A stretch of DNA of 53,024 bases from positions 1 through 53,024 of the IMG/VR virus record IMGVR_UViG_3300037961_002462; one strand, given 5' to 3'. Shown here piece by piece: positions 21,101-37,662 of this stretch; the first letter of the stretch is position 1; every line of letters starts with the position of its first letter. The DNA is from a virus (lineage: Duplodnaviria; Caudoviricetes). Below the pieces are notes generated by a model. That model searched no databases. It was not told the DNA's origin and saw only the letters and a program-made list of their open reading frames with translations. The translations under genes and the position numbers were made by a program.

Positions 21101-24100
21101 AGTATTTTCATACAAGAGGGTGGTACCGTAGGGACAGATATAATACACGAAGGCGGACATATATATTACCGTATGTTTGCGGGTACACCACTTATTAAAA
21201 GAATTAACGAACTTTTAATAGGAACAGATATATACGACCTTACTACTATAGAATATCCAGAACTAACACTTATAGATGTCGGAGGGACTGTTATGACTCT
21301 AGGACAGTATGTAGAAATACAAAAAGGTGTGTTAAATCAAAGAAATGATTTAGATGGTGATATAAAAAGTATTATTAAAAGTATAACAGAAGTGGAAGGT
21401 GTAGACGACACCAAAACAAATAACTTTTACATATCTTTATTAACACAATTAACTACAAAACGTAGGGGTGGAGCAATAGCTAAACGATTAACAGACTTAG
21501 AACAAACACATTTATTAGAAGAGTCTTTTGTAAGAACATTAGAAGCTAACTCTTTTGGTAGATTAGACGCTATTATTAAAGATAGTTCTACACAAAAGAA
21601 AATAGAAGAAGAGTTAATTAAGTATTATAAAGAAGCGAAACAACTTACTACAGACGAAGAAGCAAGACAATTTTTAGATTTAGTGGATGATGTGGTACCA
21701 ACACTAAGTTTAGACGCGGCTATGAAACACATATTGTTAAAGTTTGGGAAAAAAGGTGGTATAAGAAATTCTGGATATGCAGGAATAAATAGAGCAAAGA
21801 AAAAAAACATAACTAAAGCAACTGAATTTGGTCTAATACATACTTATATAAACTATGAATTAGGAAAAGATTTAACAGACCAAGAAATTATTGACAATGT
21901 AATAAAACGTATAGAAAAATCTGGTTTAGTAAATTTAAAAAGTTTAGATAAAAAATTAAAAAAAGAAGTAACTAGTTATATTGAATCAGTGTTGTATACA
22001 ACAAAACCTGAATACAAACAATTATTACTTACAAGTAATGATTTATTAATAGACGCTATTATACGAGAAAAAGGTTTTAAAGAAGGTAGTGTACAAGAAC
22101 AACAGGCAAAAGAAAAATATGAAGAAGAGTCGTTAAATGAAGACGACCCAAGTGATGTAGATAAGTATAATGAAGAAAAGAAACAGATAAACATGCCTAA
22201 GACAATGACTAATTTTTTTAAGGGCATTGCAGAAATATATAATGTTAAGTCAGAGTCACCATTCGAAAGAAAAAAATTAATGTATCAATTGCGTACTATT
22301 TCTAGAAATACTAGAAAAAACCCATACGAATTTATTTCTGCGATAAGAAACAGTAAGTTTACGGAAATACAACAGATGTTAGATATATTAGATAACAAAG
22401 TATTTAAAAATCAAAATTTAACAGACGCAAAACTATTACAAATCAATAACATATTTAGAAGTATGGTAATTGAAAGACTAACAGGTAATATGTTGTTAAT
22501 ACAAAACGAAACTGATTACAAATGGATAAACAAACCATTAATGAGTAGAACTACAGAAAAAACTGTAGTAAAGAGAATGTTGGATTCTTGGAAAAATTTA
22601 TCAGAAACTAAAAAAGAACAAAAAAGGATTGCATTAGAAAATGTCTATAATACAGTTAGTCAAAATAATTTTAGTGATAAAGCAAAAGCCGAAGGTACAG
22701 TAGCTATATTAGAAATACTATTTAAAGATACTGATGGTTATGAAAGACTTGATACAGAAGCGATGATGAATGAGTTAATAGTTTATAATAACAAACCTAT
22801 GTATTTGATGGATGTATTTTTTGATACTAAAAGTACACAATATGGTCCTAAGCTTACTAACAAAGAATGGATGTTGTACAATAACAAATCTAAAAGATGG
22901 TCATATAAGGTAGGTGATAGAAAAGCTTTCGAATATTATAACAATAATTTATCATCATATAAAACTGTGTTAGAAGAATTAATGATAGTTTCTAGGCCTT
23001 ATAACTACTTATCAGTGGTAGACAATGTTACAGGTGACGCAATGAGTATATTTAACAATAACAATGCGTTACACAATCAAGCTTACGACAGTGTAGAAAA
23101 AATAATAAATGTAGATAAGAGAAAGAAAAGTATATTTAATCCAAAGAACAATATATTCGCGCAAATAATACAAGATAAATTTGAAATGAATATATTGTTG
23201 AACAAACAAAATGGAGAGATATTAGACAATCCATTTGATATTAGTATACAAACAGGTATGTATAGATACTATCCAGGACAAGAACTAATAGAAAGATGGG
23301 ATGAAGGAGCAAGAAATATGACTAATATTAATCCAGCTGAAATACAATCAATGGATTTCTTTAGTTTTTTAACAGCTATTAAAAATGCAGAAAAAGGTGA
23401 CATAGTATTTTACGACCAAAGTATTGGTACGTTTTCAGACAAAAGTAGAAGGTATTATGTTAAATCTATAGCAGCTATAGATAAAAATACAAGACAAATG
23501 ATTTTGTCTAGATTGTATAATAATCCAGCAAAAAATGATACATATATAAAAGGTGATAGAGTTTTACCTTTTGATATTATACGTAATAAAAATGGTGAAT
23601 ATCAAATAGAAAACTTAACAGAATTAGTTGAAAAATTCAAATCTGATATAAGAAAAAATAGTGAACTATACGAAGGACATGAATTATTCAGGAAAGCTAC
23701 ACAAGAAACGATTGAGAACTACCTAATTAGTTATATAGGTAATAGATTTATGGCTCAACAACTGTTAGCATATGACCATAAACAAGCTAAGAACGAAGTA
23801 GATTACGTAAAAAGATTGGCGGGTACTATTGCGTCACATATGACATATGACCACAATACTTCTTTTGAACCTATAATTGTTAAAGATTATTATGTAGATG
23901 ATAACGGTAATTTATATACAGAAGATGAAATACCAGAAGGTGTAGATGTGTCAATTGAAAATGATGCTGCTGGTTATATATTACCAGAACAAGCTAAAAT
24001 AATTACAGATAAATATGCTGGTGTTAGAGATGTTGGTGGTGTTTATAAGTTTGTTTATAACTATAGACAAGAAGATGGAAGTACAGTGTATTTAAAGTTC

Positions 24101-27100
24101 GCTGTACAGGTATTAACACCAGAGATGGAACAAACAAGTGAAGTGCATAGAAATATAGCAACTCTACTTAGAGAAAGAAACATGAGTATAGCTGATGCAA
24201 CTATACCAAATTTAGAGTTTATAGATATGTTTGCACATGGAAATTTGGTAATAGCTGCTTCAGAATCATCTGCAAAACTTTGGTTTGATGGTGTGAGTGG
24301 TAAAAAGGGTGGGCAGTATGTGTATGATGTACGTAATTTGGATGACACGAATTTACAAAACATATTAAGCAAACAAGATGAAATATTTATGGAGGGAGAT
24401 ATTAACGATGCTAATAGAGTTTTTGTAGGTTTAGATGGTAAGGGATTAGGTATACAGTTAGAATTAGACAAACAAACAGACGAAAGATATTATCCGTCAC
24501 AATTATTTTATCATTTGAATAACAACATGTATAGTCCTGCAAATGTTGAAATACTTAACAGAATGTTACAGTTAAGAAAAAATGTGATGGAAAAAAGTAA
24601 TCAAGAAAGAAACTTTGATGAAGGAATGATAAGTGAGTTAGGAGCTACAACAGAACAAATATTTAAAGAGATGGAAAGTTTTAAAAGTTCTGTAGACCCA
24701 GGTATATATGGTCAGTTGTTATCGTCTTTGTTTGGAGATATAGATGGTAGATACCCAGCTATGAATGACATATATAATGCAATAGCTAGAGGTAGAGTAC
24801 AAAAGAAAGGGACTAAAATGTATACAAAAGGTAGTATAGCTTATCAATCATCTTCTTTAGGTATGGGTCTAGAATCGTTTGTTACACGTAATATAGATGG
24901 TAGAGATGTAGTAGTTTCGGAAGCGTTTGTTCCTGGTTATTTACAACAACAAGGTGTTAAGGTAGGAGATTTGTTTTTAGGTACTAGAATACCATCACAT
25001 GGTAAGGTAAGTACATCTGTATTTGTAGTAAAAGGTTTTCATCAACAACTAGAAGGTACACCTACATCTAAGATAACTATACCAGCTAAAGTGTCTAAAT
25101 ATTGGGGAGCTGACTTAGATGGAGATTCTATACACATGAATTTTAAATACAATGAAAACGAAATAAAAAGTGCAGATGATTGGAGAAATGATAGTAATGA
25201 GTTTTTTGATTTGTATGTTGATTTAGTTAGTAAACAAGATGTAAGAAAAGAAATAACAGCTGATATAGAATTTGAAAACGAAGTTAATAACATACTAGGA
25301 GAAGACAGAAAAAGACCTGAATCACAACTTACACCAACAGGTGATAGTCAAACTTTTAAAGAAAATGTACCAACAAAAAAGTTAGTTGGTATTGTAGCTG
25401 CATTACAAAGAACATTAAATGTATTTTCTAATTCTGGAGTAGAGTTAGGTTTTGAAATAGATATAGAGGGTAGAAAGGTAGATAGGTTTTTTGATGATGT
25501 AGCATTAGAAGATGGTAAGGGTAACTGGTTTGGTCTAGCACAGATTCTTAACATAGTATTAGACAACGCAAAACATCAGTATGCAGAAGGTTTGGGTATT
25601 AATTTTAATTCAGCTGCGGGTTTTGTAATGTTGAGAAGACTGGGATATTCTTTACAACAAGTAAAAGATATATATACATCTGATGTAGCTAAATCATATT
25701 TCGATTGGTTAGACACTACAAATGGTAAAAAGTTTACTTCGTCTAAAAATACGATACAACAGTTAATTGGTAAAACAAAACGACCAGGTAAAAAATCTAG
25801 TGATTTTATAAAGTTTTTAGGTAGAAACCTTACCAAAGAAGAAAATAAAATATTAACTATAATATATAATTTACAAGAGTTTAATAAAACTATAGCACAA
25901 CCTATAGGTCAAATGTTTACTGTACATCAAGGTATAATTAAAAATCCTTTAGAGTTAAGAGCTACTTTAAGAAAAATAGAATTAATAAAAAATAACAGAA
26001 TAAAACCAAGTATTAAAAATTACAAAGAAAATAAACTTGGTAATTTATTTACAAATCCTATATTAACACATGCTCAAGAGTTGATGGAGTTAGTTTTAAC
26101 AAGAGCTAGTTCTACTGATATAAGATACACACCTTATATGCAATCTATTACAGAAGAAGTGTATACAGACGCAAATAGTAAATTTTTCTATTATTCAGAC
26201 CAACAAAAAAACAAAATAATAAATCATATAATAAAAGAAAAACTCGCAGAGTATATTGATGTTATAAACTCTAGTAGAAGATTGTCTAGTTTAGTTGAAG
26301 ACTTTAAGACAATGAAAGAAGAGAATCCTAATAATAAATTTTTACAGTCTTTAAAAGTTGTAACTAATAGTAAGGGTAGGGAAATTATAGTTACAAACAA
26401 ACAAATACTTAATGAATTTCTTACAGAATCAGAAATACAAGAAATCAAAAAAGATTTCAGTCAGTTGACTGCAGAACAAAAAGACACAATGATAAATATT
26501 GAATATAGATTTTTTGATTTTGGTTTTAAAGAAGAATCTATAATACCTTTGTTTGATAATGTAGAAATACAACTTTTAAATAAAGATATACAAAAGGCTA
26601 TAAATTATATGCAAGAAGCAATACCAACGGGTGTTAAGGGTATTGATATTATTGAACAAGCAGAATCTGAAATTCAACAAGAGTTAAAAGAAATAAAAAA
26701 TATAGAAGATAGACTTATAGAAGAATCAACAAAAGAAAGAGAATCAGGAGATACTTTTGATGGTAAAATGAAATTAACAACTTCAGAAGAACAGTCTATT
26801 ATATCTGGCAACAAAAAAACAATAGCGCATGGTTTCAGTTATAATGACACTGGTGGTAATATAGTTAAGTTAATTACACCTGGTAGTACTTTGGTTGAAA
26901 TATCACCTGCTATTAAAAGAAATAGTTTGGATGAGATTACAGATAAAGATGCATTTGCTAGGTCTGAAGGATATGACAACTTTCAAGATATGAAAGAAAA
27001 TGGTACGAAGTATCATAAAGATTTTATAGAAGGTAAAAAACCAATATACATACACAAGATTGTTGGTAAACCCTCTACAGCTACAGAAAACAGAAGAGCT

Positions 27101-29650
27101 AAAAAAGCTTTTGACAGAAATGTTACTGAGAGTGTAGAATATATGGAAGAAACAAATCTTTTGTCATTTGATGAGTGGTTACAAGATAAAGGTATAACTA
27201 TAAAGTCCTTAACAAAAGGTTCTATTATATATAAAAGACTACAACAAAGATATAAACAATATGTTATAGACTACAATTTGTCAGAAGATTTTATCGTAGA
27301 AAAACTTACTGATGCAAAAATTAAAAAGATGTCTATGGATGATTTATTTAATGCGGTTAAAAAGTTAAATAAGTTAGATGGTAGTGCAAGTAATAGAGCA
27401 AAACATTTAGTTAGAAAAGAAATAGCACAAAGAGCATTTAGAGAACAGTCAGACTTTTTACAAGAACAAGCAGATATACAATCATTTAAATTTGTTAAAC
27501 CAGCAAAATCAGATGATATAACTTGGTTTAGAAAGTGGTTAGGTTCTAATAATATGACATCACGTAGACCAGAAATACAATACATGATTAATGAAATAGA
27601 AAAAAATTATTATAACTATTTACAAAGAAATAGAAAGTATGTAGCTGAAATAAATAAAGTACATAATGAGTTAATTGATAGTAAATTAGCTGGTATATCT
27701 ACAATAGAAAAAATAAAAGGAAGGTTAAACATGGCTCAAAGATATGAGTTATTGTATGGTAACATAACTAATAGAGATAAAAATGGTAGAATTGTATTGT
27801 TGTCTAAAGAACAAATGAAAAGTAAACGTAGTTCTATAACACAACAAGAATACAACTACTGGAAAATGTATCAAGATATAAACAAAAGATTTTCTGATAT
27901 TATAAAACAAGAAAAAACTGATTTTATTAAAAATATAAAAATGGGTGATTTAGAAATGTTTGGTAGAGAAGGTTTGTTTGGTTTGTATGATATGAGAATG
28001 GGTAAAAATATGTACGTAGAAAATGTAAAACTATATTTTGATGTTGGTGGTACACAAGTTTTAATGCCACTCAGTACTATAAGAACATATTTAAAGAGTA
28101 GTGGAGCTACAGCAAAAGAAAGAATAAAGAATGTAGAAACATTAGAAAAACTTAAAAGAAAAGCAACTAGATTAAAAAAACAAGGTAAACATGAGGACGG
28201 TAGTGATATTACACTTACTGATGCAGAAATTGACGCACTTATAGATGATGGTGATGCAATTATGAGAATGGCTAATGGATACGAAGGTGAATTATCTGAA
28301 GCAGATAAAGCATTGATACAAGAAATAAAAAGAAGACAACTTACAGAATTTGAACATATGTCGATGGATTTAAATGGAGCTCTGTTAGAATATGTTAGAG
28401 GTATGTTATTTAAATATGGAGATGTAACTAGAGATAGAAATGGAAAACCAAACAACTTAGATGAAAATCCTTTTGTAGGTATGTCTAACATGTCTGTATT
28501 AGTAGACGCTGTAATAGAATTTAATAAAGAAAATGGAAATAAAAACGCGGCAGAATATTTAACTAGGGTTTGGAAAGATTCATTTTTAGAAAAGAAAAAA
28601 CCTAGATTAAATACAGTAGAAAAAATAATAGACTTTTTAGTAAGACTTACATCTTTAAATGTATTAGGTTTTAATCCATTAGTAGCAGTGGGTAATGTAT
28701 TAGCTGGTAAATATCAGGAGTATAGAAAACGTGGTGGTAAAACATTTAAATTAGGTGAAAAAAGGTATTGGAAAGATTGGGGATACTCACAAAAGTTATT
28801 AGAAAAATACAGAATTATAGAATATAGTTTTAGTGACTTTGTACATCTTGACAACAAAAAAGGAGTGTTTGGTAAGATAGAAAGAGCTTCGTATGTATTT
28901 ATGGATAAAACGGAAAACTATATACAAGGTGCTGCCTTTCTTAGTATGTTAACTGAAGAAGAATATATATCAGGTGAAATATCACAAAGAAGAGTTGCAC
29001 AAATAAATTCTAGAATAGCTACTTTACATGGTGAAGGTTATACAGCTCTAGATGGTAGGTTATTAGGTACTTACGCTTTAGGTAGGGCGGCTTTACAATT
29101 TAAAAAATGGTTTGTTACTTTAATAGGTGACAGATTCCAACAACACGATATAGACAGGTTTGGAGAAGTGCAAATAGGTAGTTATACTGCAACTGGTAAT
29201 TATATAAAAGATTTGTATAGACAGTTTAGAGAAGGTGAAATTACCTTAGAACAAATGCAAGACGCGTATAATAAAATGAGTGTAGAACAACAAAGAGAAA
29301 TGGGTGCCTATATAAGAGGTGTGGCGTTAGCAGGAATTGTAGCGACACTTATATTAGTTATGGATGAAGAAGATGAAACTGATGGTACAGTATTAAGAAA
29401 TCTTAAAAAACTTAATAAAGATATTAATGTAATATCAGATTACAATAGACATATTAATTATACTTTTATACCTTCTAGTGTAGGTTTAATAGAAAGTATT
29501 GGTAAGATTTTAGATGGTATGTCAGAAGGTAATACAGAAAAATGGGAAACAGAATTAAAGTATGATGTTGCTCCATTTGGTAAGACTAGAAGAAAGTTAG
29601 AAAGTTCATTAGAAAGTACTTCTGAAAGAGAAAGCGAAATAATACGATAA
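18107..29650 (+). CDS. Giant virion-packaged DNA-dependent RNA polymerase polyprotein (two-barrel DPBB family), 3847 aa
   Basis: RIPSHG (~24986) followed by GADLDGDS (25106-25129), the R-x-P...DxDGD arrangement of two-barrel RNAPs. Size and position after the muzzle/cargo genes match crAss-like phages. Also IIHEGGH (21146-21160). Confidence 0.85.
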   Translation: MAEKTPLAQDENVSVPGIDIVEYDNNYQNASQLAEGLLNPAPQQNRQMDAYMRSQAVTDVQQQQFEGLSTSPIQPGQESGMFGVDPDAVIGTFAQDTTRSIKAGWGDLVAGTGDTIDVLNAWFNPNDPDPSTSVGNWMRGVGEKYQNENFLVISEDLQDLTWDDMFKAEFWSSKVARLVPYAASFLIPYAGGAALATRFTSKLLIGAAKRGIIGNASRVIGTASKSKKAKYLFGKNRIGGSGLAGVSLVDKGIKGKQALELTRGVKSLSQAVGGGFAANMMEGVYLGGEAYNQGMKDGLTMEQASAAASDVVYDNAQYMWVDMAQYGLLFGGLGKTFRLSRLANLTPDPKRFGFSVKGLINPLVQRGLINLPTVGTYAGIEGFSEGVQETYQEWIKYKAIHKQQGKDYQSYTNWLKTADGKFTKEARDVFWTSVGLGGAMGSVRGYVDGAAERQSTIQERLEKTALGINLQEEGKYSDEAQMMFQQFADEVIAEHIYNYNGDGTPLKQVISKQVEEGKITPEAGEALNNTIDQMVTTYDKHSLSTTLTESGQEQAFYTEVRLERNKQQRQDTKNIFNEERKRVKQNVKDPAKQKELLDEITMEENAVINILDQEKKELENRIESFYYLKEEVMTKDGKVDKRYKKRMTADEFEQFTTQGQERLTASQAQEMGMSVEQYKEYNKRKKEQGTFRNVVESIKDRFKKGRDIVSQKIKDFREPEIKPTESKTTDTDITPQQEAKKKAVIELPEPPKSEKVRRKIPIKDKVKKLAKAIVDKGGELIVKASSIIPTPGGTSYTITDSKGKTIKFFNRTGKVGNQSIENFLSKYIKDKSTDVKIKIILPQDGEANVVKIDGQLFFQYNNDLYQYKMEASIDGQTIGTIEYRDYDIKDEQITRAKKTKSERQVKKTKDVIKKYFDKIKSKVTPSKDKSKDDNLFKKYDGTVPRRNFEVYTNSGLAEYVLLNKILERNQIPADRAYIVSSELLDSFGNEAVSLAIGNSIFIQEGGTVGTDIIHEGGHIYYRMFAGTPLIKRINELLIGTDIYDLTTIEYPELTLIDVGGTVMTLGQYVEIQKGVLNQRNDLDGDIKSIIKSITEVEGVDDTKTNNFYISLLTQLTTKRRGGAIAKRLTDLEQTHLLEESFVRTLEANSFGRLDAIIKDSSTQKKIEEELIKYYKEAKQLTTDEEARQFLDLVDDVVPTLSLDAAMKHILLKFGKKGGIRNSGYAGINRAKKKNITKATEFGLIHTYINYELGKDLTDQEIIDNVIKRIEKSGLVNLKSLDKKLKKEVTSYIESVLYTTKPEYKQLLLTSNDLLIDAIIREKGFKEGSVQEQQAKEKYEEESLNEDDPSDVDKYNEEKKQINMPKTMTNFFKGIAEIYNVKSESPFERKKLMYQLRTISRNTRKNPYEFISAIRNSKFTEIQQMLDILDNKVFKNQNLTDAKLLQINNIFRSMVIERLTGNMLLIQNETDYKWINKPLMSRTTEKTVVKRMLDSWKNLSETKKEQKRIALENVYNTVSQNNFSDKAKAEGTVAILEILFKDTDGYERLDTEAMMNELIVYNNKPMYLMDVFFDTKSTQYGPKLTNKEWMLYNNKSKRWSYKVGDRKAFEYYNNNLSSYKTVLEELMIVSRPYNYLSVVDNVTGDAMSIFNNNNALHNQAYDSVEKIINVDKRKKSIFNPKNNIFAQIIQDKFEMNILLNKQNGEILDNPFDISIQTGMYRYYPGQELIERWDEGARNMTNINPAEIQSMDFFSFLTAIKNAEKGDIVFYDQSIGTFSDKSRRYYVKSIAAIDKNTRQMILSRLYNNPAKNDTYIKGDRVLPFDIIRNKNGEYQIENLTELVEKFKSDIRKNSELYEGHELFRKATQETIENYLISYIGNRFMAQQLLAYDHKQAKNEVDYVKRLAGTIASHMTYDHNTSFEPIIVKDYYVDDNGNLYTEDEIPEGVDVSIENDAAGYILPEQAKIITDKYAGVRDVGGVYKFVYNYRQEDGSTVYLKFAVQVLTPEMEQTSEVHRNIATLLRERNMSIADATIPNLEFIDMFAHGNLVIAASESSAKLWFDGVSGKKGGQYVYDVRNLDDTNLQNILSKQDEIFMEGDINDANRVFVGLDGKGLGIQLELDKQTDERYYPSQLFYHLNNNMYSPANVEILNRMLQLRKNVMEKSNQERNFDEGMISELGATTEQIFKEMESFKSSVDPGIYGQLLSSLFGDIDGRYPAMNDIYNAIARGRVQKKGTKMYTKGSIAYQSSSLGMGLESFVTRNIDGRDVVVSEAFVPGYLQQQGVKVGDLFLGTRIPSHGKVSTSVFVVKGFHQQLEGTPTSKITIPAKVSKYWGADLDGDSIHMNFKYNENEIKSADDWRNDSNEFFDLYVDLVSKQDVRKEITADIEFENEVNNILGEDRKRPESQLTPTGDSQTFKENVPTKKLVGIVAALQRTLNVFSNSGVELGFEIDIEGRKVDRFFDDVALEDGKGNWFGLAQILNIVLDNAKHQYAEGLGINFNSAAGFVMLRRLGYSLQQVKDIYTSDVAKSYFDWLDTTNGKKFTSSKNTIQQLIGKTKRPGKKSSDFIKFLGRNLTKEENKILTIIYNLQEFNKTIAQPIGQMFTVHQGIIKNPLELRATLRKIELIKNNRIKPSIKNYKENKLGNLFTNPILTHAQELMELVLTRASSTDIRYTPYMQSITEEVYTDANSKFFYYSDQQKNKIINHIIKEKLAEYIDVINSSRRLSSLVEDFKTMKEENPNNKFLQSLKVVTNSKGREIIVTNKQILNEFLTESEIQEIKKDFSQLTAEQKDTMINIEYRFFDFGFKEESIIPLFDNVEIQLLNKDIQKAINYMQEAIPTGVKGIDIIEQAESEIQQELKEIKNIEDRLIEESTKERESGDTFDGKMKLTTSEEQSIISGNKKTIAHGFSYNDTGGNIVKLITPGSTLVEISPAIKRNSLDEITDKDAFARSEGYDNFQDMKENGTKYHKDFIEGKKPIYIHKIVGKPSTATENRRAKKAFDRNVTESVEYMEETNLLSFDEWLQDKGITIKSLTKGSIIYKRLQQRYKQYVIDYNLSEDFIVEKLTDAKIKKMSMDDLFNAVKKLNKLDGSASNRAKHLVRKEIAQRAFREQSDFLQEQADIQSFKFVKPAKSDDITWFRKWLGSNNMTSRRPEIQYMINEIEKNYYNYLQRNRKYVAEINKVHNELIDSKLAGISTIEKIKGRLNMAQRYELLYGNITNRDKNGRIVLLSKEQMKSKRSSITQQEYNYWKMYQDINKRFSDIIKQEKTDFIKNIKMGDLEMFGREGLFGLYDMRMGKNMYVENVKLYFDVGGTQVLMPLSTIRTYLKSSGATAKERIKNVETLEKLKRKATRLKKQGKHEDGSDITLTDAEIDALIDDGDAIMRMANGYEGELSEADKALIQEIKRRQLTEFEHMSMDLNGALLEYVRGMLFKYGDVTRDRNGKPNNLDENPFVGMSNMSVLVDAVIEFNKENGNKNAAEYLTRVWKDSFLEKKKPRLNTVEKIIDFLVRLTSLNVLGFNPLVAVGNVLAGKYQEYRKRGGKTFKLGEKRYWKDWGYSQKLLEKYRIIEYSFSDFVHLDNKKGVFGKIERASYVFMDKTENYIQGAAFLSMLTEEEYISGEISQRRVAQINSRIATLHGEGYTALDGRLLGTYALGRAALQFKKWFVTLIGDRFQQHDIDRFGEVQIGSYTATGNYIKDLYRQFREGEITLEQMQDAYNKMSVEQQREMGAYIRGVALAGIVATLILVMDEEDETDGTVLRNLKKLNKDINVISDYNRHINYTFIPSSVGLIESIGKILDGMSEGNTEKWETELKYDVAPFGKTRRKLESSLESTSERESEIIR

Positions 29651-29688: not shown

Positions 29689-29931
29689 ATGGCAAGAAAT
29701 TTAAATGATACATACGCTACAAGAGGAGCTGCGGTAACTGCTTCAGATAGTGCAGATTTAGATAAACCAGGTTTTCTATATGTAGGAACTTCAGGAAATA
29801 TTAAAGTTACTACTACAGAAGGCGATACTTTAACATTTAATAGTATTGCGGCTGGTATAGTACATCCTATATTTGTAAAAAAAGTATTTAGTACAGGGAC
29901 AACAGCATCTAATATTTTAGTAGTATTTTAA
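29689..29931 (+). CDS. Head-spike base protein, RcGTA Rcc01079-like (80 aa)
   Basis: AAVTASDSADL...LYVGTSGNIKVT...TF..IAAG..HPI.VKKVFSTGTTASNI matches the family pattern over its full length. Confidence 0.8.
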   Translation: MARNLNDTYATRGAAVTASDSADLDKPGFLYVGTSGNIKVTTTEGDTLTFNSIAAGIVHPIFVKKVFSTGTTASNILVVF

Positions 29932-29932
29932 T

Positions 29933-30730
29933 ATGAGAGTTGGTATATCAAGTACTGTATCTACTAACGTAGTTAGTGTCGCGGAAAAAAACTATTCGTT
30001 ATTATTCGATGGTAGTAACGATGAAGTAGATTTTACTTCTACTGGTTTTCAAGCAGCTTTAGTTGATGGTAATTTTAAATTAACAGGTTCTGTGTCTATA
30101 TGGGCTAGAGTTAATGTGACGGGTTCTAACGGACAGATGTGGGACTTTGCTATAGATGAAGATAATAGAATACAACTACAGTACAAACATGGTGACGATA
30201 GTTTTACAGGAACATATAGAGCGGGTGGTACTAACAGAACAGTAAACCACAATCCATCAGGAACACAAGAAGGTGACGGTAATTTTCACCATATAGTAGT
30301 GACTTGGGATAGAGCTGGTGAAAACGAACTAAAGATATACTATGATGGTAGTTTAAGAGCAACTCAGACTTTGCCAGCTACTTTAACTGGAGATTTTGAT
30401 GACACTGCTGATAGTACCCTTGGTCAAGCTGGTGCTAGTGGTGTAGAATTTTTATCTGGTACATCATTCAATGGTAATGCAGATTATAATGGTTATTTAG
30501 ATGACTTTGCGGTTTATAGTGATGTGCTTACAGCAAGTAATGTAACTACCCTATATAATAGTGGTAAATCAAATCCATCTAATGTAAGAACAGTAGGAAC
30601 ATTGATTGCGCATTGGAAGTTTAATGAAGGAACAGGAAATACAGTAACAGATTCAAAACAAGGATTTGTCGGTACATTTGGTTCAACAGGTAATGAACCA
30701 GTATTTTCTGAAATAAATGCAGAAGAATAA
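29933..30730 (+). CDS. LamG/ConA-like lectin domain protein, putative head-spike fibre (265 aa)
   Basis: YSLLFDGSNDEV, SVSIWAR, FHHIVVTWD, KIYYDG, GYLDDFAVYSDVLT...LYNSG, AHWKFNEGTG form the LamG signature. Confidence 0.8.
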   Translation: MRVGISSTVSTNVVSVAEKNYSLLFDGSNDEVDFTSTGFQAALVDGNFKLTGSVSIWARVNVTGSNGQMWDFAIDEDNRIQLQYKHGDDSFTGTYRAGGTNRTVNHNPSGTQEGDGNFHHIVVTWDRAGENELKIYYDGSLRATQTLPATLTGDFDDTADSTLGQAGASGVEFLSGTSFNGNADYNGYLDDFAVYSDVLTASNVTTLYNSGKSNPSNVRTVGTLIAHWKFNEGTGNTVTDSKQGFVGTFGSTGNEPVFSEINAEE

Positions 30731-30746
30731 TAAATAAAATAAAATT

Positions 30747-30851
30747 ATGAAAAATAAAATATGTAAATGGGTTCAAGCTATAACATTTGGACTAGTATGT
30801 TTTAAATGGTGTGAGTGTTGTTGTAAATTAGATAACTGTTGTAAAAAATAA
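30747..30851 (+). CDS. Unannotated 34-aa cysteine-rich peptide MKNKICKWVQAITFGLVCFKWCECCCKLDNCCKK
   Basis: Translated by hand; A-rich leader TAAAATAAAATTATG; fills the intergenic gap, stop 4 nt before the next ATG; 8 Cys. Confidence 0.65.
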   Translation: MKNKICKWVQAITFGLVCFKWCECCCKLDNCCKK

Positions 30852-30855
30852 TATT

Positions 30856-31146
30856 ATGGCAAAAGAATTAAACGAGGATACTGGTTTTGTATTAAGCATT
30901 AAAACAATTATAGGACTAGGTTTTGCAGTAGCTACAATTGCTGGTATGTGGTTTACACTACAAGCAGATATAGCAGAAGCGAAAGAATTACCAGTACCAC
31001 CTCCACCAGATGTAACTAGGATGGAATTTGATATGAAGGATAAAAACATACGCCTAACTATCGAAAATACTCAAGAAGATGTTGAAGAGATAAAAGAAGA
31101 TTTAGACAGAATAGAAGAAAAAATTGATGAACTAACCAGAAGATAA
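30856..31146 (+). CDS. Single-pass membrane protein with C-terminal coiled coil (96 aa)
   Basis: TM segment IIGLGFAVATIAGMWFTL, poly-Pro linker, heptad VEEIKEDLDRIEEKIDEL. Confidence 0.7.
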   Translation: MAKELNEDTGFVLSIKTIIGLGFAVATIAGMWFTLQADIAEAKELPVPPPPDVTRMEFDMKDKNIRLTIENTQEDVEEIKEDLDRIEEKIDELTRR

Positions 31147-31493
31147 TGGAAAATTCTGTATGGAAAATTTATTCGTTGCTTTTATTTTGTTACTTGTGTC
31201 CATCATTGCTATATTCGCAGATAACGATAACCCAGTTTAATGCAAGTTGGAACTCTTCAAATGATGTAGAGTGGTTAAACAAGTTATCTGATGTAGATAA
31301 AATAAAATATATAGATATAGCAGAAAACACTAAAGCACAACAAAAACATGAAATAGTAGTAGTTCCTACTATTGTAATATATAAGGACGGAGAAGAAGTA
31401 AAAAGATTACAAGCAGACATATCGTTTGCTATAAAAGCAACTAGAGAAGAGTTGCAAGAATATATAGATGAACTATTAATGGAAGACTTTTAA
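31146..31493 (+). CDS. Exported thioredoxin-fold protein lacking the CxxC active site (115 aa)
   Basis: Signal peptide ending YSQ; FNASWNSSN in place of F.A.WCxxC; YIDI; IVVVPTIVIYKDGEEVKR (cis-Pro loop motif). Confidence 0.75.
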   Translation: MENSVWKIYSLLLFCYLCPSLLYSQITITQFNASWNSSNDVEWLNKLSDVDKIKYIDIAENTKAQQKHEIVVVPTIVIYKDGEEVKRLQADISFAIKATREELQEYIDELLMEDF

Positions 31494-33679
31494 TGAAAAA
31501 ATTATTATTATTTTTATTATTACCATTGTTAACTTTCGGACAAAAGGAAGTCATTATAACTATTAAAACAGATGTATATCCAGGAGAAACAAAATGGGTG
31601 TTATATGATTCTGTTTATCAAGGTGATACATTAGCCCATGTTCCTTATGGGTATTATACACAAAACAATACTGTTAATAGTGATACAGTGTACATTCCAG
31701 ATAGTATTACTAATATATCTTTTGTTATATTCGATTCTTATGGAGACGGTATAACTAATGGGGAGTATTATGTAAGTATATGTGGAGACACCGTAGTTGA
31801 TTATCCTACTAGTACATTTACTTCAGGATTAATACATAATAGAGTTGTACCACAATGTATGCCACAACCACCACCAGTTCAGTTAGTTCCAGCTAAAGTT
31901 ATAATAAACTTAGACCAGTATCAAAGTGAAACATCTTGGGATATAAAGGATACAAATGGTAATGTATATGCTATGGGTGGTAATTATAATACACAACCAG
32001 ATTACTCTACAATAGTAATTCCTGTACAAATACCTAAAGGTAATTTAATATTTACTATATATGATACGTACGGTGATGGTTTAAATGGGAGTTTGTGGCA
32101 GGGTCAAGATGGTTCGTATTTTGTAAAACAATGTAATGATACATTAGTGTATGGTACAAACCCAGCTTTTGGTAACGACACATCACATATATTTGTTTCA
32201 GATTCTTGTCCGCCTATATATGGGTGTACAGATGATGATTATGTAGAATGGAATCCATTTGCAGATATAGATGACGGGAGTTGTCAAACATTAAAAATAT
32301 TTGGATGTATAGACAGTACAATGTACAATTATGATAGTACAGCAAATACTATGGAACTTATAGATACTTGTGAGTATACATTGATACTACATGACCTTAT
32401 GGGTAATGGATGGGTTGGTTCACATTTAAAAGTGATACATCCAGATACATCTTATCAATTTACACATACAGGTGGTTTTATAGATGAATATCAAATAGGA
32501 TTAACCGCGCCTGACCCAGTAACATTTAGATTTCATATATCGTCACAGGCAAGTTTAACTACAATAGAATGTGGTTTTACATTTATAAATCCAGAGGGTG
32601 ATACTTTGATAAGTATTATGCCTCCATTTATACAACCATTATTACCATATCATATAATAACAAACTGTGGTAATACATGTGAAGAAAAACTATTCGGTTG
32701 TACTGATAGTACAGCTGTTAATTATACTGACTCTGTCAACACTGATGACGGTAGTTGTTATTATAATCCAGGTTGTATGAATCCTCTATTTTTAGAATAT
32801 GATTCTACAGCCGATTATGATAATGGTTCTTGTGAAACTTTAATAGTTTTAGGATGTATGGATAGTACAGCTTTAAATTACAACCCAAATGCAAATGTAG
32901 AATTACCTGGTAGTTGTATAGATATAATATATGGATGTATGAATCCATTAGCATTTAATTATAATCCTAATGCAAACGTAGACGATTCTACATGTATACC
33001 ATTGATATATGGTTGCACAGACCCAACTATGTTTAACTATTGTGATAGTTGTAATACAGATGATGGAAGTTGCGAACCATTTGTATATGGATGTACAGAT
33101 TCAACAATGTTTAATTTTAATCCACTTGCAAATGCTGACAATAATTCTTGTGTTCCTTATATTATCGGGTGTACTGACCCTACTGCACTTAATTACAACC
33201 CCGAAGCTAATACAGAAGATTTTAGTTGTATTGATTATATCTATGGTTGTACTGATAGTACTGCTCTTAATTATAATCCAGAAGCTAATACTGACAATGG
33301 TTCGTGTATTGATGTGGTTGAAGGATGTATGGACCAAGATGCGCACACATATAATGAACTAGCTAATGTAAATATAGAAGATTCATGTTTTTATGACGCA
33401 GAATGTATAACAGGACCTGGAGAACCATATTGGTTAAATGACCCTTGTTATGCTTGGGTTATAGATGTTGATGAGTATTGTTGTGAAAATGAATGGGACA
33501 ATATATGTCAATTAACATATGACTATTGTGAAGGTACTTGGACAGGGCCGTTACCAAAACGAACGAAACAGTTAATTATGATTGTAGATATATTAGGTAG
33601 ACCTGTAGTAGAAAATAAAAATCAACTATTGTTTTATATATATGACGATGGTAGTGTAGAGAAAAATTTAAAACAATGA
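31493..33679 (+). CDS. Secreted Cys-repeat protein with T9SS-like C-terminal sorting tail (728 aa)
   Basis: Signal peptide MKKLLLFLLLPLLTFG/Q; two TDxYxxETxW...DxYGDG domains; 11 GC(T/M)D..A.NY...AN.DDGSC repeats; C-terminal LIMIVDILGR...LFYIYDDGSVEK. Confidence 0.75.
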   Translation: MKKLLLFLLLPLLTFGQKEVIITIKTDVYPGETKWVLYDSVYQGDTLAHVPYGYYTQNNTVNSDTVYIPDSITNISFVIFDSYGDGITNGEYYVSICGDTVVDYPTSTFTSGLIHNRVVPQCMPQPPPVQLVPAKVIINLDQYQSETSWDIKDTNGNVYAMGGNYNTQPDYSTIVIPVQIPKGNLIFTIYDTYGDGLNGSLWQGQDGSYFVKQCNDTLVYGTNPAFGNDTSHIFVSDSCPPIYGCTDDDYVEWNPFADIDDGSCQTLKIFGCIDSTMYNYDSTANTMELIDTCEYTLILHDLMGNGWVGSHLKVIHPDTSYQFTHTGGFIDEYQIGLTAPDPVTFRFHISSQASLTTIECGFTFINPEGDTLISIMPPFIQPLLPYHIITNCGNTCEEKLFGCTDSTAVNYTDSVNTDDGSCYYNPGCMNPLFLEYDSTADYDNGSCETLIVLGCMDSTALNYNPNANVELPGSCIDIIYGCMNPLAFNYNPNANVDDSTCIPLIYGCTDPTMFNYCDSCNTDDGSCEPFVYGCTDSTMFNFNPLANADNNSCVPYIIGCTDPTALNYNPEANTEDFSCIDYIYGCTDSTALNYNPEANTDNGSCIDVVEGCMDQDAHTYNELANVNIEDSCFYDAECITGPGEPYWLNDPCYAWVIDVDEYCCENEWDNICQLTYDYCEGTWTGPLPKRTKQLIMIVDILGRPVVENKNQLLFYIYDDGSVEKNLKQ
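32215..33390 (+). repeat. About 26-aa (78-nt) two-Cys repeats: 2 copies, a spacer domain, then 9 in tandem
   Basis: For example GCTDPTALNYNPEANTEDFSC and GCTDSTALNYNPEANTDNGSC. Confidence 0.85.
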
Positions 33680-34710
33680 AAAAAATATTAATATTTATTT
33701 TTCTATTACTACCTTTGTTTGGTAAATCACAAATAGATATAGAAAAGATTTTTAAATTTTCTACATTCTATGCAGCTGTTAATGGTGGTACATCTGTTTC
33801 AGATGTTGAAATATTTTCTGTACAAGATGGTTTAACTACTGAAACAATACAAACACCGTATGACTTTAATCTTACTGTAGGTATCAGAAAGATAGCTAGG
33901 TTTGGTTACGAAAACAAAGCAAATACATTTTATGATGGTACAGAATCTAATTATAGTGACGCTGCTACTATTGGTAAAGTAAAAGGACCTGAGTTTTTAT
34001 TTCAAATAGATTACAAAAGACAAGAGGGTGTAGAGTATTTGGACCAACATCATTTTGTTAGACACACAGTATATGACTACATATTAAAAGCTGAGTATCT
34101 TGTTGATGGTTTTGCAGATGTAGAATATTTTGAAACATCACAAAGATATAAGTATAAGGTAGGGGGGTTTGTTTTTAATGGTGGTATTGTACAACGTATA
34201 GCAGAACCATATGGATATGACCCATTAGACCAATGGAAGTTAGATAATGGTGGTATACATTATACATACTTAGCATTACAAGAAGGATATAATGTAGATG
34301 TATATCATGAAATGTATTATAACTCTAATGGTGATTTAGTAGCTACATCTAATGATGTTTGGGAACAAGTGGTAATACCAGATGTACTATCTCAATATAC
34401 AGAAAGAAAGAGAAATGAATTAGATAGAATATGGAATCATTCTATAGTTATTGGTTTTGATTATTATTACTATAAAAAAGATTTTTGGATACATAGTTGG
34501 GGTAACTTATTGCCTTGGCATTATAATGATGGTAATGATTTTAATTATCATTATGATGTAGATGGACAATGGTACGATTATTCAGGAGGTTTGATATTTG
34601 GACAGAAATTTACAAAACAATTTGGTATCTTTGTAGAAGGTAAATACAATAAGTATTGGAATAGAGAATGGTATGATTTTAAATTAGGATTAAATTACGT
34701 AATAAGATAA
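33676..34710 (+). CDS. Putative outer-membrane beta-barrel protein (344 aa)
   Basis: Signal peptide MKKILIFIFLLLPLFGKS/Q; aromatic-rich alternating strands; C-terminal FGIFVEGKYNKYW...DFKLGLNYVIR beta-signal-like end. Confidence 0.65.
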   Translation: MKKILIFIFLLLPLFGKSQIDIEKIFKFSTFYAAVNGGTSVSDVEIFSVQDGLTTETIQTPYDFNLTVGIRKIARFGYENKANTFYDGTESNYSDAATIGKVKGPEFLFQIDYKRQEGVEYLDQHHFVRHTVYDYILKAEYLVDGFADVEYFETSQRYKYKVGGFVFNGGIVQRIAEPYGYDPLDQWKLDNGGIHYTYLALQEGYNVDVYHEMYYNSNGDLVATSNDVWEQVVIPDVLSQYTERKRNELDRIWNHSIVIGFDYYYYKKDFWIHSWGNLLPWHYNDGNDFNYHYDVDGQWYDYSGGLIFGQKFTKQFGIFVEGKYNKYWNREWYDFKLGLNYVIR

Positions 34711-34994
34711 TGGCAATAATAGGATATGTAGATAATATACCAGTGTTTGAAACACCAATAGAAGCTTTACAGTATGGTAATACCAATGGATTAGTTGGAT
34801 ACCATACACACAATATAAATGGTGTTGTTGGATATATGGCAGGGCCAACACATGGTCAAGCCGCTTCAGGTTCACAGGGTAGTATGACAAGTAATTTTAT
34901 TAGTACAGGTAGTAGTAGTACACCAGAAGGTAGTTCAAGTAGTGGTTCACAAGGAGCTCCGTCTTTTGGTGGTGGTGAAAAAGGAGGATATTAA
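34710..34994 (+). CDS. Small protein with GYHTH...YMAG.TH motif and Ser/Gly-rich tail (94 aa)
   Basis: TAATG overlap with the upstream gene; His cluster suggests metal binding. Confidence 0.6.
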   Translation: MAIIGYVDNIPVFETPIEALQYGNTNGLVGYHTHNINGVVGYMAGPTHGQAASGSQGSMTSNFISTGSSSTPEGSSSSGSQGAPSFGGGEKGGY

Positions 34995-34995
34995 T

Positions 34996-36387
34996 ATGAG
35001 TAATGGACCATATACATTAACAACTTCAGGAGAAGGTTTAGGACCAGGACCAGATAGAAGGTATCAGTTTCCTGTTGAATTTGGTATGATGAAAAATATA
35101 CCATTTCAATATGATTTTGGTGAGTTTGGACCACCTGAGGCAAAATTAGGAAGAGATGGTAGAATAACTTTTACAGGACCTGTAGTCAGACCTACTTATA
35201 AAAAAGGTAAGAAAAAAGGTGAATACAGACCATTAGCTAAACAACAAACTGTTAAGTATAAACCTAATGAATTAGGAGCGACAATTAAAGTAAAAGAAAC
35301 TCCATTACAACGTACAAGAAAAAGAAGATTTACAGAAGATTTTAATTATCAAGGAGATTATAGTACAAGAGATGTTAGAAGGTTTAATAGATTAAGAAAA
35401 AAAGGGTTTCAAAGTCCATTATCTAGTAAGGGTTATAAAAAAATATTAGACCCTGATACAGAACCATATAGATTACATGTACCTGTTATTGGTCAAGCTC
35501 CAGACTTAATAAATAGATTAGTAAGTTTTACTAAAAGAGGTATGCAATTAGGTGGAGAGTATGGTCCAATAGCAGGTGGTGATTATACAGATGTTACAAG
35601 AACAAATGTTAATCCGTCTGATGGTTTTTCGTTATTTACTAGAGGAAGATTAAATCCTAATATTACGTATGGACTTGAAGGGACAAAAAAAAGAGGAGGT
35701 AGTAGTCCTTTTAATACAGTATTAGGAATGACTTTGGGTGGAATGGCAGGATTTGGTACACTTTTTCCTGCTAGTGGTTCTGAACAAAGTTATTTAAATC
35801 TACCTATTAAAGGTAGGTTTACTAAAAATAAATTTTTAAATACTATATTTCCAGGTTTTGAAGATTATGCAGCACAAGGAGACAGTCCAAGTGGTAGGGA
35901 CGATGTTACAGTTACGAATTATGGAGGTAGTTTAAATATACCTATTTTAGGAGTTTCTACAAATAGAGGCCAAAAAAATATAATAGATATGGGAGTATAC
36001 GGCAGTCAATATAGTAATCAACGATATAGTAATCAAAGACTTTCCAAAATACATCCACTAATTCCTTTTACAGGTAGATATACTATAGGAGGTGATGATA
36101 AAGGAGCTCCAGATTATAGTGGTAATATTTTTAAAGATATAGGACAATATGTATATAAAGGTGGTTTAGATAAAAATTTAAGGTCATTTGGATATCCCTA
36201 TGGAGCGTCATTTGAAACACCAATACCATTATTACCACCATATGCAAATGTATTTGACCCTGGTAGATTTAATGTAAAAAGAACAAAAGAAGTAATATAT
36301 AATCCACAAGGTGGTTTGAATGAAATGACAATATATAACACGAGGCCTGGGAGATTTACAACAACAGATAGAAATTTTGTATATTAA
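34996..36387 (+). CDS. Hypothetical basic Gly/Pro/Phe-rich protein (463 aa; start revised from 34942)
   Basis: ATG 1 nt after the previous stop; no recognisable domain. Confidence 0.65.
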   Translation: MSNGPYTLTTSGEGLGPGPDRRYQFPVEFGMMKNIPFQYDFGEFGPPEAKLGRDGRITFTGPVVRPTYKKGKKKGEYRPLAKQQTVKYKPNELGATIKVKETPLQRTRKRRFTEDFNYQGDYSTRDVRRFNRLRKKGFQSPLSSKGYKKILDPDTEPYRLHVPVIGQAPDLINRLVSFTKRGMQLGGEYGPIAGGDYTDVTRTNVNPSDGFSLFTRGRLNPNITYGLEGTKKRGGSSPFNTVLGMTLGGMAGFGTLFPASGSEQSYLNLPIKGRFTKNKFLNTIFPGFEDYAAQGDSPSGRDDVTVTNYGGSLNIPILGVSTNRGQKNIIDMGVYGSQYSNQRYSNQRLSKIHPLIPFTGRYTIGGDDKGAPDYSGNIFKDIGQYVYKGGLDKNLRSFGYPYGASFETPIPLLPPYANVFDPGRFNVKRTKEVIYNPQGGLNEMTIYNTRPGRFTTTDRNFVY

Positions 36388-36403: not shown

Positions 36404-36829
36404 ATGAGTATCTTTACAAAAATATTTACAGGGAGTGCTGACAAGATAATTAATTCTGTCGGTAACGTATTAGACGAGGTAATAACTACACAGGAAGAAA
36501 AAGACGCAGCTAAGTTAGCTATACAGAAAGTACTATTAGAAGCAGAAAAAGATGCTTTTGCTAAAGAAGTAGAAGATAGAAAGTCTGCACGTGATATGTA
36601 TAAAGATGATGCAATGATACAAAAAATTCTTGCAACATTGTTTACGGTAGCATACTTTGGTATTACATTTGTAATGTTTAGTTATTTTGTAACTAAATCA
36701 ATAGACTTAGGTGAGTTTGAAATAAGTTTTATATCTACAATTTTTGGTGCTATGTCATCTAAAGTTAATACGATAATAGACTTTTTCTTTGGTGGTAGTA
36801 GTAAGAAAAGTGAACCTGTAAAAAAATAA
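36404..36829 (+). CDS. Holin (3TM GTA-holin-like)
   Basis: EVEDRKSARDM motif, two hydrophobic helices and FFFGGSS ending; two genes upstream of the endolysin. Confidence 0.7.
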   Translation: MSIFTKIFTGSADKIINSVGNVLDEVITTQEEKDAAKLAIQKVLLEAEKDAFAKEVEDRKSARDMYKDDAMIQKILATLFTVAYFGITFVMFSYFVTKSIDLGEFEISFISTIFGAMSSKVNTIIDFFFGGSSKKSEPVKK

Positions 36830-36832
36830 ATT

Positions 36833-37168
36833 ATGGCAAAAACACCAGCTTGGCAAAGAAAAGAAGGTAAAAATCCTTCAGGTGGTTTGAACGCAAAAGG
36901 TCGTGCATCATTAAGAGCTAAAGGACAAAATATAAAAGCACCTGTAACAACTAAACCTTCTAAACTAAAAAAAGGTTCTAAAGCTGCAAAACGTAGAAAA
37001 TCTTTTTGTGCACGTATGAAGGGTATGAAAAAAAGATTAACATCTGCAAAAACAGCTAGAGACCCTAATTCAAGAATTAATAAAGCATTAAGAAAATGGA
37101 ATTGTGCACATGGATGTGCAATGCCTAGAAAAAATAATTATTCATCAATGAGACCACAACTAGACTAA
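36833..37168 (+). CDS. DUF6321-like highly basic phage protein
   Basis: WQRKEGKNPSGGLNAKGRAS...RRKSFCARMKG...DPNSRINKALRKWNC family signature. Confidence 0.75.
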   Translation: MAKTPAWQRKEGKNPSGGLNAKGRASLRAKGQNIKAPVTTKPSKLKKGSKAAKRRKSFCARMKGMKKRLTSAKTARDPNSRINKALRKWNCAHGCAMPRKNNYSSMRPQLD

Positions 37169-37662
37169 TGGCAAAAATAAGCGACCACATAACATATCAC
37201 GAGGCTACCTATAGTAGAACTGGTGAAAGATTAAATTTAGACAATACACCGAATCCTAAACAATTAAAATGTATGGCAGAAGTAGCAGAAAATCTGTTTG
37301 AACCATTACGTAAGTGGGTTGGTGGACCTATAAAAGTAAATAGTTTTTTTAGGGGGGAACCTGTAAATACAGCTATAGGCGGTAGTAAACATTCACAACA
37401 CATGAAAGGTCAAGCTATAGATATAGATGACACGTTTGGACATAAAACAAACGCAGAAATGTATCATTATATAAAAGATAATCTAGAATTTGACCAAATG
37501 GTATGGGAGTTTGGTGGTGAGTATCCTGATGGTAACCCTAACTGGGTACATATTAGTTGGGTATCACATAGACCAAATAGAAAACAAGAAGTAATTGCTA
37601 TCAAAAAAAATGGTAGAACTAAGTATATTAAAGATATAGAGGATTATTTAAAAAATAAATAA
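37168..37662 (+). CDS. Endolysin, peptidase M15A/M15_3 family
   Basis: PIKVNSFFR...N.AIGGS..SQHMKGQAIDID...WVHIS. Confidence 0.88.
   Translation: MAKISDHITYHEATYSRTGERLNLDNTPNPKQLKCMAEVAENLFEPLRKWVGGPIKVNSFFRGEPVNTAIGGSKHSQHMKGQAIDIDDTFGHKTNAEMYHYIKDNLEFDQMVWEFGGEYPDGNPNWVHISWVSHRPNRKQEVIAIKKNGRTKYIKDIEDYLKNK

Follow-up and report, generated by a model that had tools for sequence, protein, structure and literature searches.

Positions 30,747 to 34,710 of the IMG/VR virus record IMGVR_UViG_3300037961_002462 hold five consecutive open reading frames (ORFs) on the + strand, here designated A to E. The record, a linear DNA of 53,024 bases that is about 80% complete according to CheckV, was analysed at its full length and is referred to below as the window. 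Our best explanation of the locus is that B, C, D and E belong to a late-gene module that is conserved in an abundant lineage of uncultured marine phages of Bacteroidota, and that the module delivers phage proteins to one layer of the host envelope after another. We consider it likely that these four products are exported envelope proteins that act in one process, and the view taken in the initial annotation, that they are targeted to the envelope rather than built into the virion, is supported insofar as the proteins look envelope-targeted. The fuller reading, in which the four genes serve the export and assembly of a variable surface protein, is put forward more tentatively, as one that, taken as a whole, may fail somewhat more readily than hold.

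The five ORFs are tightly coupled, and all of the junctions first described for them are present. ORF A (30747-30851, +) encodes a peptide of 34 aa with nine Cys and is separated by a 4-nt gap from B (30856-31146, +; 96 aa). B is joined to C (31146-31493, +; 115 aa) by TAATG, as is C to D (31493-33679, +; 728 aa), and D overlaps E (33676-34710, +; 344 aa) in ATGA; E is in turn linked to the next ORF by TAATG. The N-termini of the C, D and E products each have a basic n-region followed by a hydrophobic core and then a Gln residue. This Gln is invariant in C (33 of 33 aligned sequences), at least 90% conserved in D (30 aligned) and present in most of the 27 aligned E sequences. The signal peptides were judged from the sequences and alignments and not from SignalP. 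A heuristic signal-peptide test was too unspecific, passing 104 of 709 control ORFs, and the calls rest, therefore, on the alignments. Read in this way, the three signal peptides followed by Gln, together with a single membrane anchor in B, were borne out. A Gln residue after the Sec signal cleavage site has been described as the Q-rule (PMC5837995), and the N-terminus of D, by sequence and alignment, has the Sec signal plus Gln that is a criterion for cargo of a type IX secretion system (T9SS). The Q-rule signal peptides, the T9SS domains found in orthologues of D, and remote structural homology to crAss-like and Cellulophaga phages together point to a host that is very probably a member of the Bacteroidota.

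The four genes B to E were found together in a large number of related loci. In IMG/VR, 469 of 472 candidate stretches from the clade of the window (clade 1) encode a relative of E; 80 of the 469 loci, chosen through E, were kept for the counts given here. By tblastn, B was detected in 71, C in 67 and D in 66 of the 80 loci, with several of the misses lying at contig ends, and thus the genes co-occur across homologous E-anchored loci, as had been supposed. Their order is variable. Among the 57 loci in which both D and E are complete, the order is B-C-D-E in 23 and E-B-C-D in 34, and a third arrangement, M15-B-C-D-x-E, in which M15 denotes the endolysin gene, was observed in three endolysin-anchored loci. 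B lies directly upstream of C in every case where it was found.

A second clade was reached through an E relative of 36% identity and provided 96 further IMG/VR stretches. Profile searches of 80 loci of clade 2 identified E in 78, B in 67, C in 65 and D proper in five, and B and C are adjacent in 65 of 78 loci. The ORF that directly follows E in clade 2 encodes a small secreted protein unrelated to D; in 62 of 78 loci it has at least six Cys, and in 55 of 78 it shows a tail-like C-terminal pattern. Because this small protein takes the place of D, a Cys-rich, tailed secreted protein is paired with a Cys-less thioredoxin fold in both clades. The B-C-D-E set thus persists in no fewer than three gene orders and in two deeply separated clades of uncultured marine phages, and B, C and E have no relative in 50,697 deposited phage records. 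That the set constitutes one four-part unit is suggested by its persistence through permutation and divergence, by the thioredoxin fold with a Cys-rich partner in each clade, and by the conservation of B, C and E as opposed to the variability of D.

Some further features of clade 2 are recorded here. The small protein (L155:8011-8559 and 61 other loci) has nine Cys, a variable, highly acidic region of Thr/Glu/Ile/Tyr repeats and a DGxxDCxDxSDE stretch that resembles, below threshold, the low-density lipoprotein receptor A module; weak matches to this module were seen in seven of the seven proteins scanned, all of them scoring below the cut-off. Some clade-2 phages carry a GH16 gene directly after E and before the gene for the small Cys-rich protein (L094:8047-8754; PF00722, E-value 8e-16).

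The proposal of a five-gene cassette holds for B, C, D and E and does not hold for A, which is mobile. Relatives of A were found in 18 of the 80 loci, 15 by blastp and three by a scan for Cys-rich ORFs (examples are L004:8626-8721, L062:7119-7202 and L026:7687-7779), and their position varies: upstream of B, in the interval from C to D, or adjacent to the M15 endolysin gene. They are conserved Cys-rich, Lys-rich peptides of 27-49 aa. A is a genuine small-peptide family that is loosely attached to the module and not a fixed member of it. The hydrophobic stretch of A is broken up by Lys residues, and hence A is not a clear signal peptide; a role as a small lysis or membrane-active peptide would be a guess.

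The 344-aa product of E is predicted to be an outer-membrane beta-barrel, as the initial annotation had proposed, and this prediction is supported by an AlphaFold2 model and by structural matches. The model, built from an alignment of 27 relatives, is a barrel of about 14 strand segments with a mean predicted local distance difference test (pLDDT) score of 75.5 and a predicted template modelling (pTM) score of 0.70. In a Foldseek search, the four matches at an E-value of 0.001 or below were NanC (in two crystal forms), OmpT and FapF. With the VIA aligner, the highest score was that of KdgM (Z 10.7), followed by TamA, EstA and NanC; 14 chains reached Z of at least 8 over the whole model, and the listed rows that were re-aligned at Z of at least 8 were all membrane barrels. 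The T9SS translocon entry chain 6h3i_F scored Z 7.8, which is within the generic barrel background. At the place of the C-terminal beta-signal, which in outer-membrane barrels ends in an aromatic residue, the window's E has NYVIR, and distant relatives have NYLIF or NYLFF. E matched no family in Pfam, NCBIfam or PHROGs, and the PorP/SprF family (PF11751) gave no match to it at an E-value of 10 or below. The ESM Atlas returned viral clusters only, and the nearest named entries were generic barrels at 0.93, a score that serves as a lead only.

Relatives of E are numerous: 3665 of 5240 candidates had an E-value of 0.001 or below, and 321 representatives at 50% clustering passed the same threshold in a collection of 1.84 billion. 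A relative was found in one of 401 Bacteroidota genomes, and that genome holds a 63-kb phage-like contig; a scan of a genome collection with a single E protein returned three contigs from metagenome-assembled genomes, which resembled binned phage DNA. By the distribution of its sequence relatives, then, E is phage-specific, with no host homologue. No viral locus was found for P0322, an E relative of 25% identity. A complex prediction for E with C and the C-terminal region of D gave a score of 0.01 against a mark of 0.32, a result that speaks neither for nor against binding.

The product of C had been described as a Cys-less thioredoxin, and profile matches uphold this description. The single C sequence matched PF00085 with an E-value of 6.8e-5 and 23.3 bits, compared with a cut-off of 23.5, and a profile of 33 C sequences matched thioredoxins of the PDB, with 2vim_A at an E-value of 1.3e-9 and 209 chains at 1 or below. 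The thioredoxin WCxxC motif is replaced in C by WNxxN, of which N36 and N39 are invariant in the 33 sequences, and the cis-Pro motif VPT and the C-terminal Phe are conserved in the same alignment. A CxxC pair was seen in three of 66 homologues, each time within the signal peptide. The signal is of the signal-peptidase-I type with the Gln residue and has no lipobox Cys. Judged by these motifs, C is a secreted, redox-dead thioredoxin fold. The E. coli protein CnoX (YbbN) is a redox-inactive chaperone of the thioredoxin fold that lacks the CxxC pair and is thought to hold substrates. C resembles it in lacking CxxC and differs from it in that C is secreted, phage-encoded and composed of a single small domain with NxxN.

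B has a single hydrophobic span at about residues 16-36, which a Pro-rich linker connects to a C-terminal helix, and this arrangement is conserved in 61 distinct homologues; members of the family are 92-107 aa long. The orientation of the protein in the membrane is not settled by charge, and no significant match was found in Pfam, NCBIfam or PHROGs.

D is the variable member of the set, ranging from 610 to 1347 aa, whereas B, C and E are conserved. The window's D contains 37 Cys, and eight of its repeats fit a strict 21-residue pattern. From the N-terminus, it consists of the signal peptide, three beta-sandwich domains (about residues 17-389), the Cys repeats (about residues 244-632), a helical module rich in Cys and, last, a short tail. 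The AlphaFold2 model of D is of low confidence (pLDDT 53.5), and an assignment of its fold was dropped, as the Foldseek matches were generic multi-sandwich proteins with TM-scores below 0.1. Residues 17-240 scored 0.80 or lower in the ESM Atlas, which was uninformative, and no Pfam, NCBIfam or PHROG family was matched by D. Among 8000 scored candidates, 5830 were relatives of D at an E-value of 0.001 or below. A search with residues 640-728 gave 1394 relatives, of which the 120 listed are metagenome sequences, mostly of the length of D, none with an informative name or a Pfam domain.

The initial annotation noted a resemblance of the repeats and the tail to proteins of Bacteroidota, and both do occur in the bacterial genomes sampled. 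The Cys repeats were found in four of 200 other Bacteroidota genomes, in large ORFs, and two bacterial ORFs carry both the D-type repeats and, as judged by shared coordinates, a terminal T9SS type A domain (TIGR04183/PF18962). Deposited phage records matched D via the Cys repeats only, in five records and over at most 19% of its length. One of these matches is an ORF of the Synechococcus phage S-CAM3, a cyanomyovirus (L085, NC_031906.1, 36382-37932), with 51% identity over 19% of D. Since the repeat occurs in S-CAM3 as well, it is common to phages of unrelated hosts and to bacterial surface proteins.

The last 38 residues of D (33563..33676, +) are a candidate for a host-type sorting tag. AlphaFold2 modelled this short tail as three strands over about 38 residues (pLDDT about 75). 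Other members of the D family end in a full type A domain: PF18962 is carried by 18 of the 120 D relatives listed, and on re-scanning it was located at the extreme C-terminus in nine of nine full-tail relatives, seven of them above the 27-bit cut-off, as compared with none of four short-tail relatives. TIGR04183 scored above its cut-off in five of five orthologues with the full domain. The two types of tail replace one another at the same junction, where 46 distinct short tails and eight full domains were counted. The D proteins of loci L068 (full domain) and L057 (short tail), for example, are 91% identical over 678 residues and diverge just after the conserved junction. D is similar to T9SS type A cargo in its Sec signal with Gln, its modular, adhesin-like body and its tag at the extreme C-terminus, and its orthologues include true members of that class.

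A profile of the short tail matched proteins in four of 201 Bacteroidota genomes (E-values from 5.5e-15 to 8.8e-4), and all four matches are the extreme C-termini of secreted proteins. These are a GH16 glucanase with a CBM48-like module, a hydrolase of the beta-lactamase fold, a 105-aa protein and a 476-aa protein, encoded at L248:370-1623 and L250:1492-2847 (genomes G145 and G169) and in L249 and L251. Two of the proteins were scanned, and no T9SS tail model was among the family matches listed. The number of type A domains encoded per genome runs from 86 to more than 150 in these four, and relatives of E were not found there. The occurrence of the short tail on secreted bacterial enzymes in genomes that have no E argues that it is a host-type sorting tag and not a handle specific to E. 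The short tail is probably, although not demonstrably, read by the T9SS; for the window's own D, we lean slightly toward the tail being a T9SS signal.

We propose that D, the variable and adhesin-like part, would be exported by Sec and held in the periplasm by C, which would act as a holdase for a cargo with dozens of Cys. C may have B as its tether or organiser at the inner membrane. D would then cross the outer membrane by the host route for such tags, most likely the T9SS, and E, inserted by the beta-barrel assembly machinery (BAM), would serve as a conserved outer-membrane partner, an anchor or platform and not a tail receptor. In this way, the module would most likely alter the infected cell's surface as infection ends. 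One possible purpose is receptor masking or a block to re-adsorption, which would keep progeny and superinfecting phages from being wasted on debris and on cells already infected. Phage proteins of the host outer membrane have precedents in Lom and Bor of lambda and Llp of T5, the last of which shields progeny from re-adsorption. The likeness lies in outer-membrane proteins encoded near tail or lysis genes. The differences are that Lom, Bor and Llp are single small proteins, that no sequence or family relation to them was found, and that E is far larger, with about 14 strands.

Several observations weigh against this model of export and display. The window's D matches no T9SS tail model of Pfam or NCBIfam at E-values up to 0.1 to 1, a search of the complete record in all six frames revealed no T9SS C-terminal domain at an E-value of 10 or below, and none of 32 isolated short tails matches the T9SS domain models. 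A comparison of the short tail with the full domain by hhalign gave a probability of 2% over 17 columns, which is insignificant. The short tail is about half the length of the T9SS domain, and its three strands are not the seven-strand sandwich of about 70-100 residues; the seven-strand, immunoglobulin-like sandwich has been reported to be essential for T9SS cargo (PMC11285876). The designation of the tail as a T9SS sorting domain, which the initial annotation had made, is, therefore, not sustained for the window's D, given its failure in the TIGR04183 and PF18962 models. The clade-2 tail is likewise not significantly related, by profile comparison, to either the short tail or the full domain, and in the 201 Bacteroidota genomes it gave marginal matches only (E-values from 0.0016 to 0.0096).

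Further points concern E. In a maximum-likelihood tree of E (57 rows), the type of the D tail changes six times by parsimony and at least four times on well-supported branches, so E does not co-vary with the tail of D. Bacteria export tailed proteins without E, and hence the phage should not need B, C and E just for the export of D. The suggestion that E is D's own barrel partner is disfavoured by its independence of tail type, by the tailed bacteria that lack it, and by the lack of a match to PorP/SprF or to any other T9SS barrel family in Pfam and NCBIfam. In addition, the S-CAM3 ORF with D-type repeats is annotated as a virion structural protein. Finally, the position of B and C beside the endolysin gene points to lysis over display. 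In clade 2, the endolysin gene starts at most 3 nt past the end of C in all 26 loci with an M15 match, and in three further loci, B and C directly adjoin the endolysin gene in the order M15-B-C. This proximity to the lysis genes, like the alternative gene orders, had escaped the initial annotation.

The main alternative hypothesis, which we regard as possible but rather unlikely, is that B, C and E carry out the outer-membrane step of lysis or set its timing, as a spanin substitute or a pair of the holin/antiholin kind, and that D is a separate, host-exported cargo that merely shares the late region. The Rz and Rz1 proteins of lambda are two-component spanins encoded by adjacent, overlapping genes next to the endolysin gene, in the order endolysin and then spanin genes, and M15-B-C reproduces this order. 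The B-C pair resembles them further in that a bitopic inner-membrane protein with a helix, in B putatively periplasmic, comes first and a secreted protein second, from overlapping genes and, in relatives, with an endolysin nearby. The N-terminal membrane span and helix of B fit the i-spanin architecture, although the window's copy is not beside M15 as the copies of its relatives are. In clade 2, a holin-like gene follows the endolysin gene, and B is often immediately preceded by a holin-like ORF with two transmembrane segments. The conservation of B, C and E is that of core genes, and E is phage-specific. A crude pattern scan of the window's ORFs of at least 35 aa found none with a lipobox-type signal, so that no ordinary o-spanin or u-spanin candidate is seen there.

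Other properties of the three proteins fit lysis less well. C is not an o-spanin, in view of its signal type, and is a thioredoxin fold rather than a lipoprotein; the extramembrane part of B is short, at only about 55 residues; and a barrel is part of the set. Neither a beta-barrel nor a thioredoxin fold is known to us to act as a spanin. The distance from C to the endolysin gene in the window is 5.7 kb. Among the 40 endolysin-anchored loci with at least 6 kb of upstream sequence, E was present in only 23 and B together with C in 25, which indicates that the module is not tied to this endolysin family. With the record about 80% complete, a spanin could lie in the missing part, and the lipobox pattern used in the scan is a crude one. 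[quoted passage not shown] One could also envision a joint scenario, to which we give no greater weight than to the lysis hypothesis: B, C and E may form an undescribed, phage-specific trans-envelope apparatus, either a spanin stand-in or a private assembly line for a surface protein, and the short tail that D has in common with secreted bacterial hydrolases may be a new, compact export signal of Bacteroidota that is functionally interchangeable with the type A domain.

It is improbable, in our view, that the genes are independent, moron-like late accessory genes, each exported on its own and held together only by their position between the tail-fibre and lysis genes. A does move independently, and DUF6321 and GH16 genes are inserted within the set in some loci, but at least three permutations, and divergence of E down to 36% identity, have left the four genes within a stretch of about 5 kb, the B-C adjacency is kept in clade 2, and the neighbouring upstream genes are not conserved, the tail-fibre-like gene having relatives in none and the LamG gene in two of the 80 related loci. 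We consider it very improbable that the products are ordinary tail or fibre components with signal-peptide-like N-termini: the cassette does follow tail-fibre-like genes, and S-CAM3 offers its annotated structural protein as a parallel for the D repeats, but hundreds of relatives keep the Gln-ending signal peptide in three proteins, the model of E and all of its structural matches make it a membrane barrel, orthologues of D carry a T9SS export domain, and the short tail is common to secreted bacterial enzymes.

Phage-encoded T9SS cargo and phage proteins with the Q-rule are already in print, a fact that the initial annotation overlooked. The cryoconite phage termed 'Cryophage' (Bellas et al. 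2020; PMC7468147) was reported to encode T9SS cargo, which was called unique at that time; its authors presumed that the cargoes are secreted by the host system and linked them to competition or superinfection. The likeness to Cryophage is that variable proteins bearing T9SS type A domains, here found in orthologues of D, are specified by a Bacteroidota phage. The cargoes of Cryophage are an endoglucanase, a GH39 protein and a PA14 protein located in variable islands (PMC7468147), whereas the loci described here have one Cys-rich repeat protein that belongs to a conserved set, the other members of which are a membrane protein, a Cys-less thioredoxin fold and a barrel, and most members of the D family, the window's included, carry a short, non-canonical tail. 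Proteins that obey the Q-rule have also been noted in Porphyromonas phages (PMC10367356). Literature searches, conducted on articles exclusive of their supplements, returned no paper on the B-C-D-E module.

In the window, structural and lysis genes occupy the + strand as far as about 40.7 kb, and replication and recombination genes lie on the - strand beyond it. The cassette has a GC content of 0.32, unremarkable beside 0.27-0.36 in the rest of the record. An ORF of 1908 aa (5351-11077) shows remote similarity, at 23-29% identity over its N-terminal 400 residues or so, to proteins of gut crAss-like phages and of the Cellulophaga phage phi14:2 that are described as structural or 'stabilization' proteins. 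This similarity is the sole support that we have seen for calling the phage crAss-like. A second long ORF (18107-29650; 3847 aa) has no PHROG match and probably encodes a very large virion protein of the internal or ejected kind; its C-terminal 600 residues, the only part compared, are present in 12 of 80 related loci. Immediately upstream of the cassette (29689..30730, +) are a tail-fibre-like ORF of 80 aa (phrog_12296, E-value 1.2e-17) and a Laminin_G_3 protein (PF13385, E-value 2.9e-15).

Downstream, the ORF whose start is coupled to the stop of E encodes 94 aa, and its end is overlapped by an ORF of 481 aa with a GTG start (34942-36387), for which no relative was found in the 80 related loci and no family match in Pfam, NCBIfam or PHROGs. 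These are followed on the + strand by genes for a holin-like protein (36404-36829; phrog_3427 holin, E-value 6e-4), a DUF6321 protein (36833-37168; PF19846, E-value 1.1e-18) and the M15 endolysin (37168-37662; phrog_894 endolysin, E-value 1.3e-24; PF08291, E-value 5e-12). The DUF6321 gene, which adjoins the endolysin gene in the window, sits between C and D in L030, L033, L041, L042 and others, and the PHROG relatives of its product are the C-terminal parts of far longer proteins. A scan for promoter-like and terminator-like sites, based on a sigma-70 consensus that is unsuited to Bacteroidota, gave 41 promoter-like sites compared with 57 expected and six terminator-like sites compared with 2.3 expected, none of which was convincingly placed at the borders of the cassette.

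The E family is very common in marine metagenomes. The short tail of D may be a Bacteroidota sorting signal that has escaped recognition, and it could then help to annotate secretomes and be used as a small tag for export. Should the module breach the outer membrane, this would close a gap in our understanding of how many phages of Bacteroidota complete lysis. If, instead, a variable Cys-rich binder is displayed or released through the T9SS of the host, these phages would reprogram, late in infection, the surface of the main marine degraders of polysaccharides.

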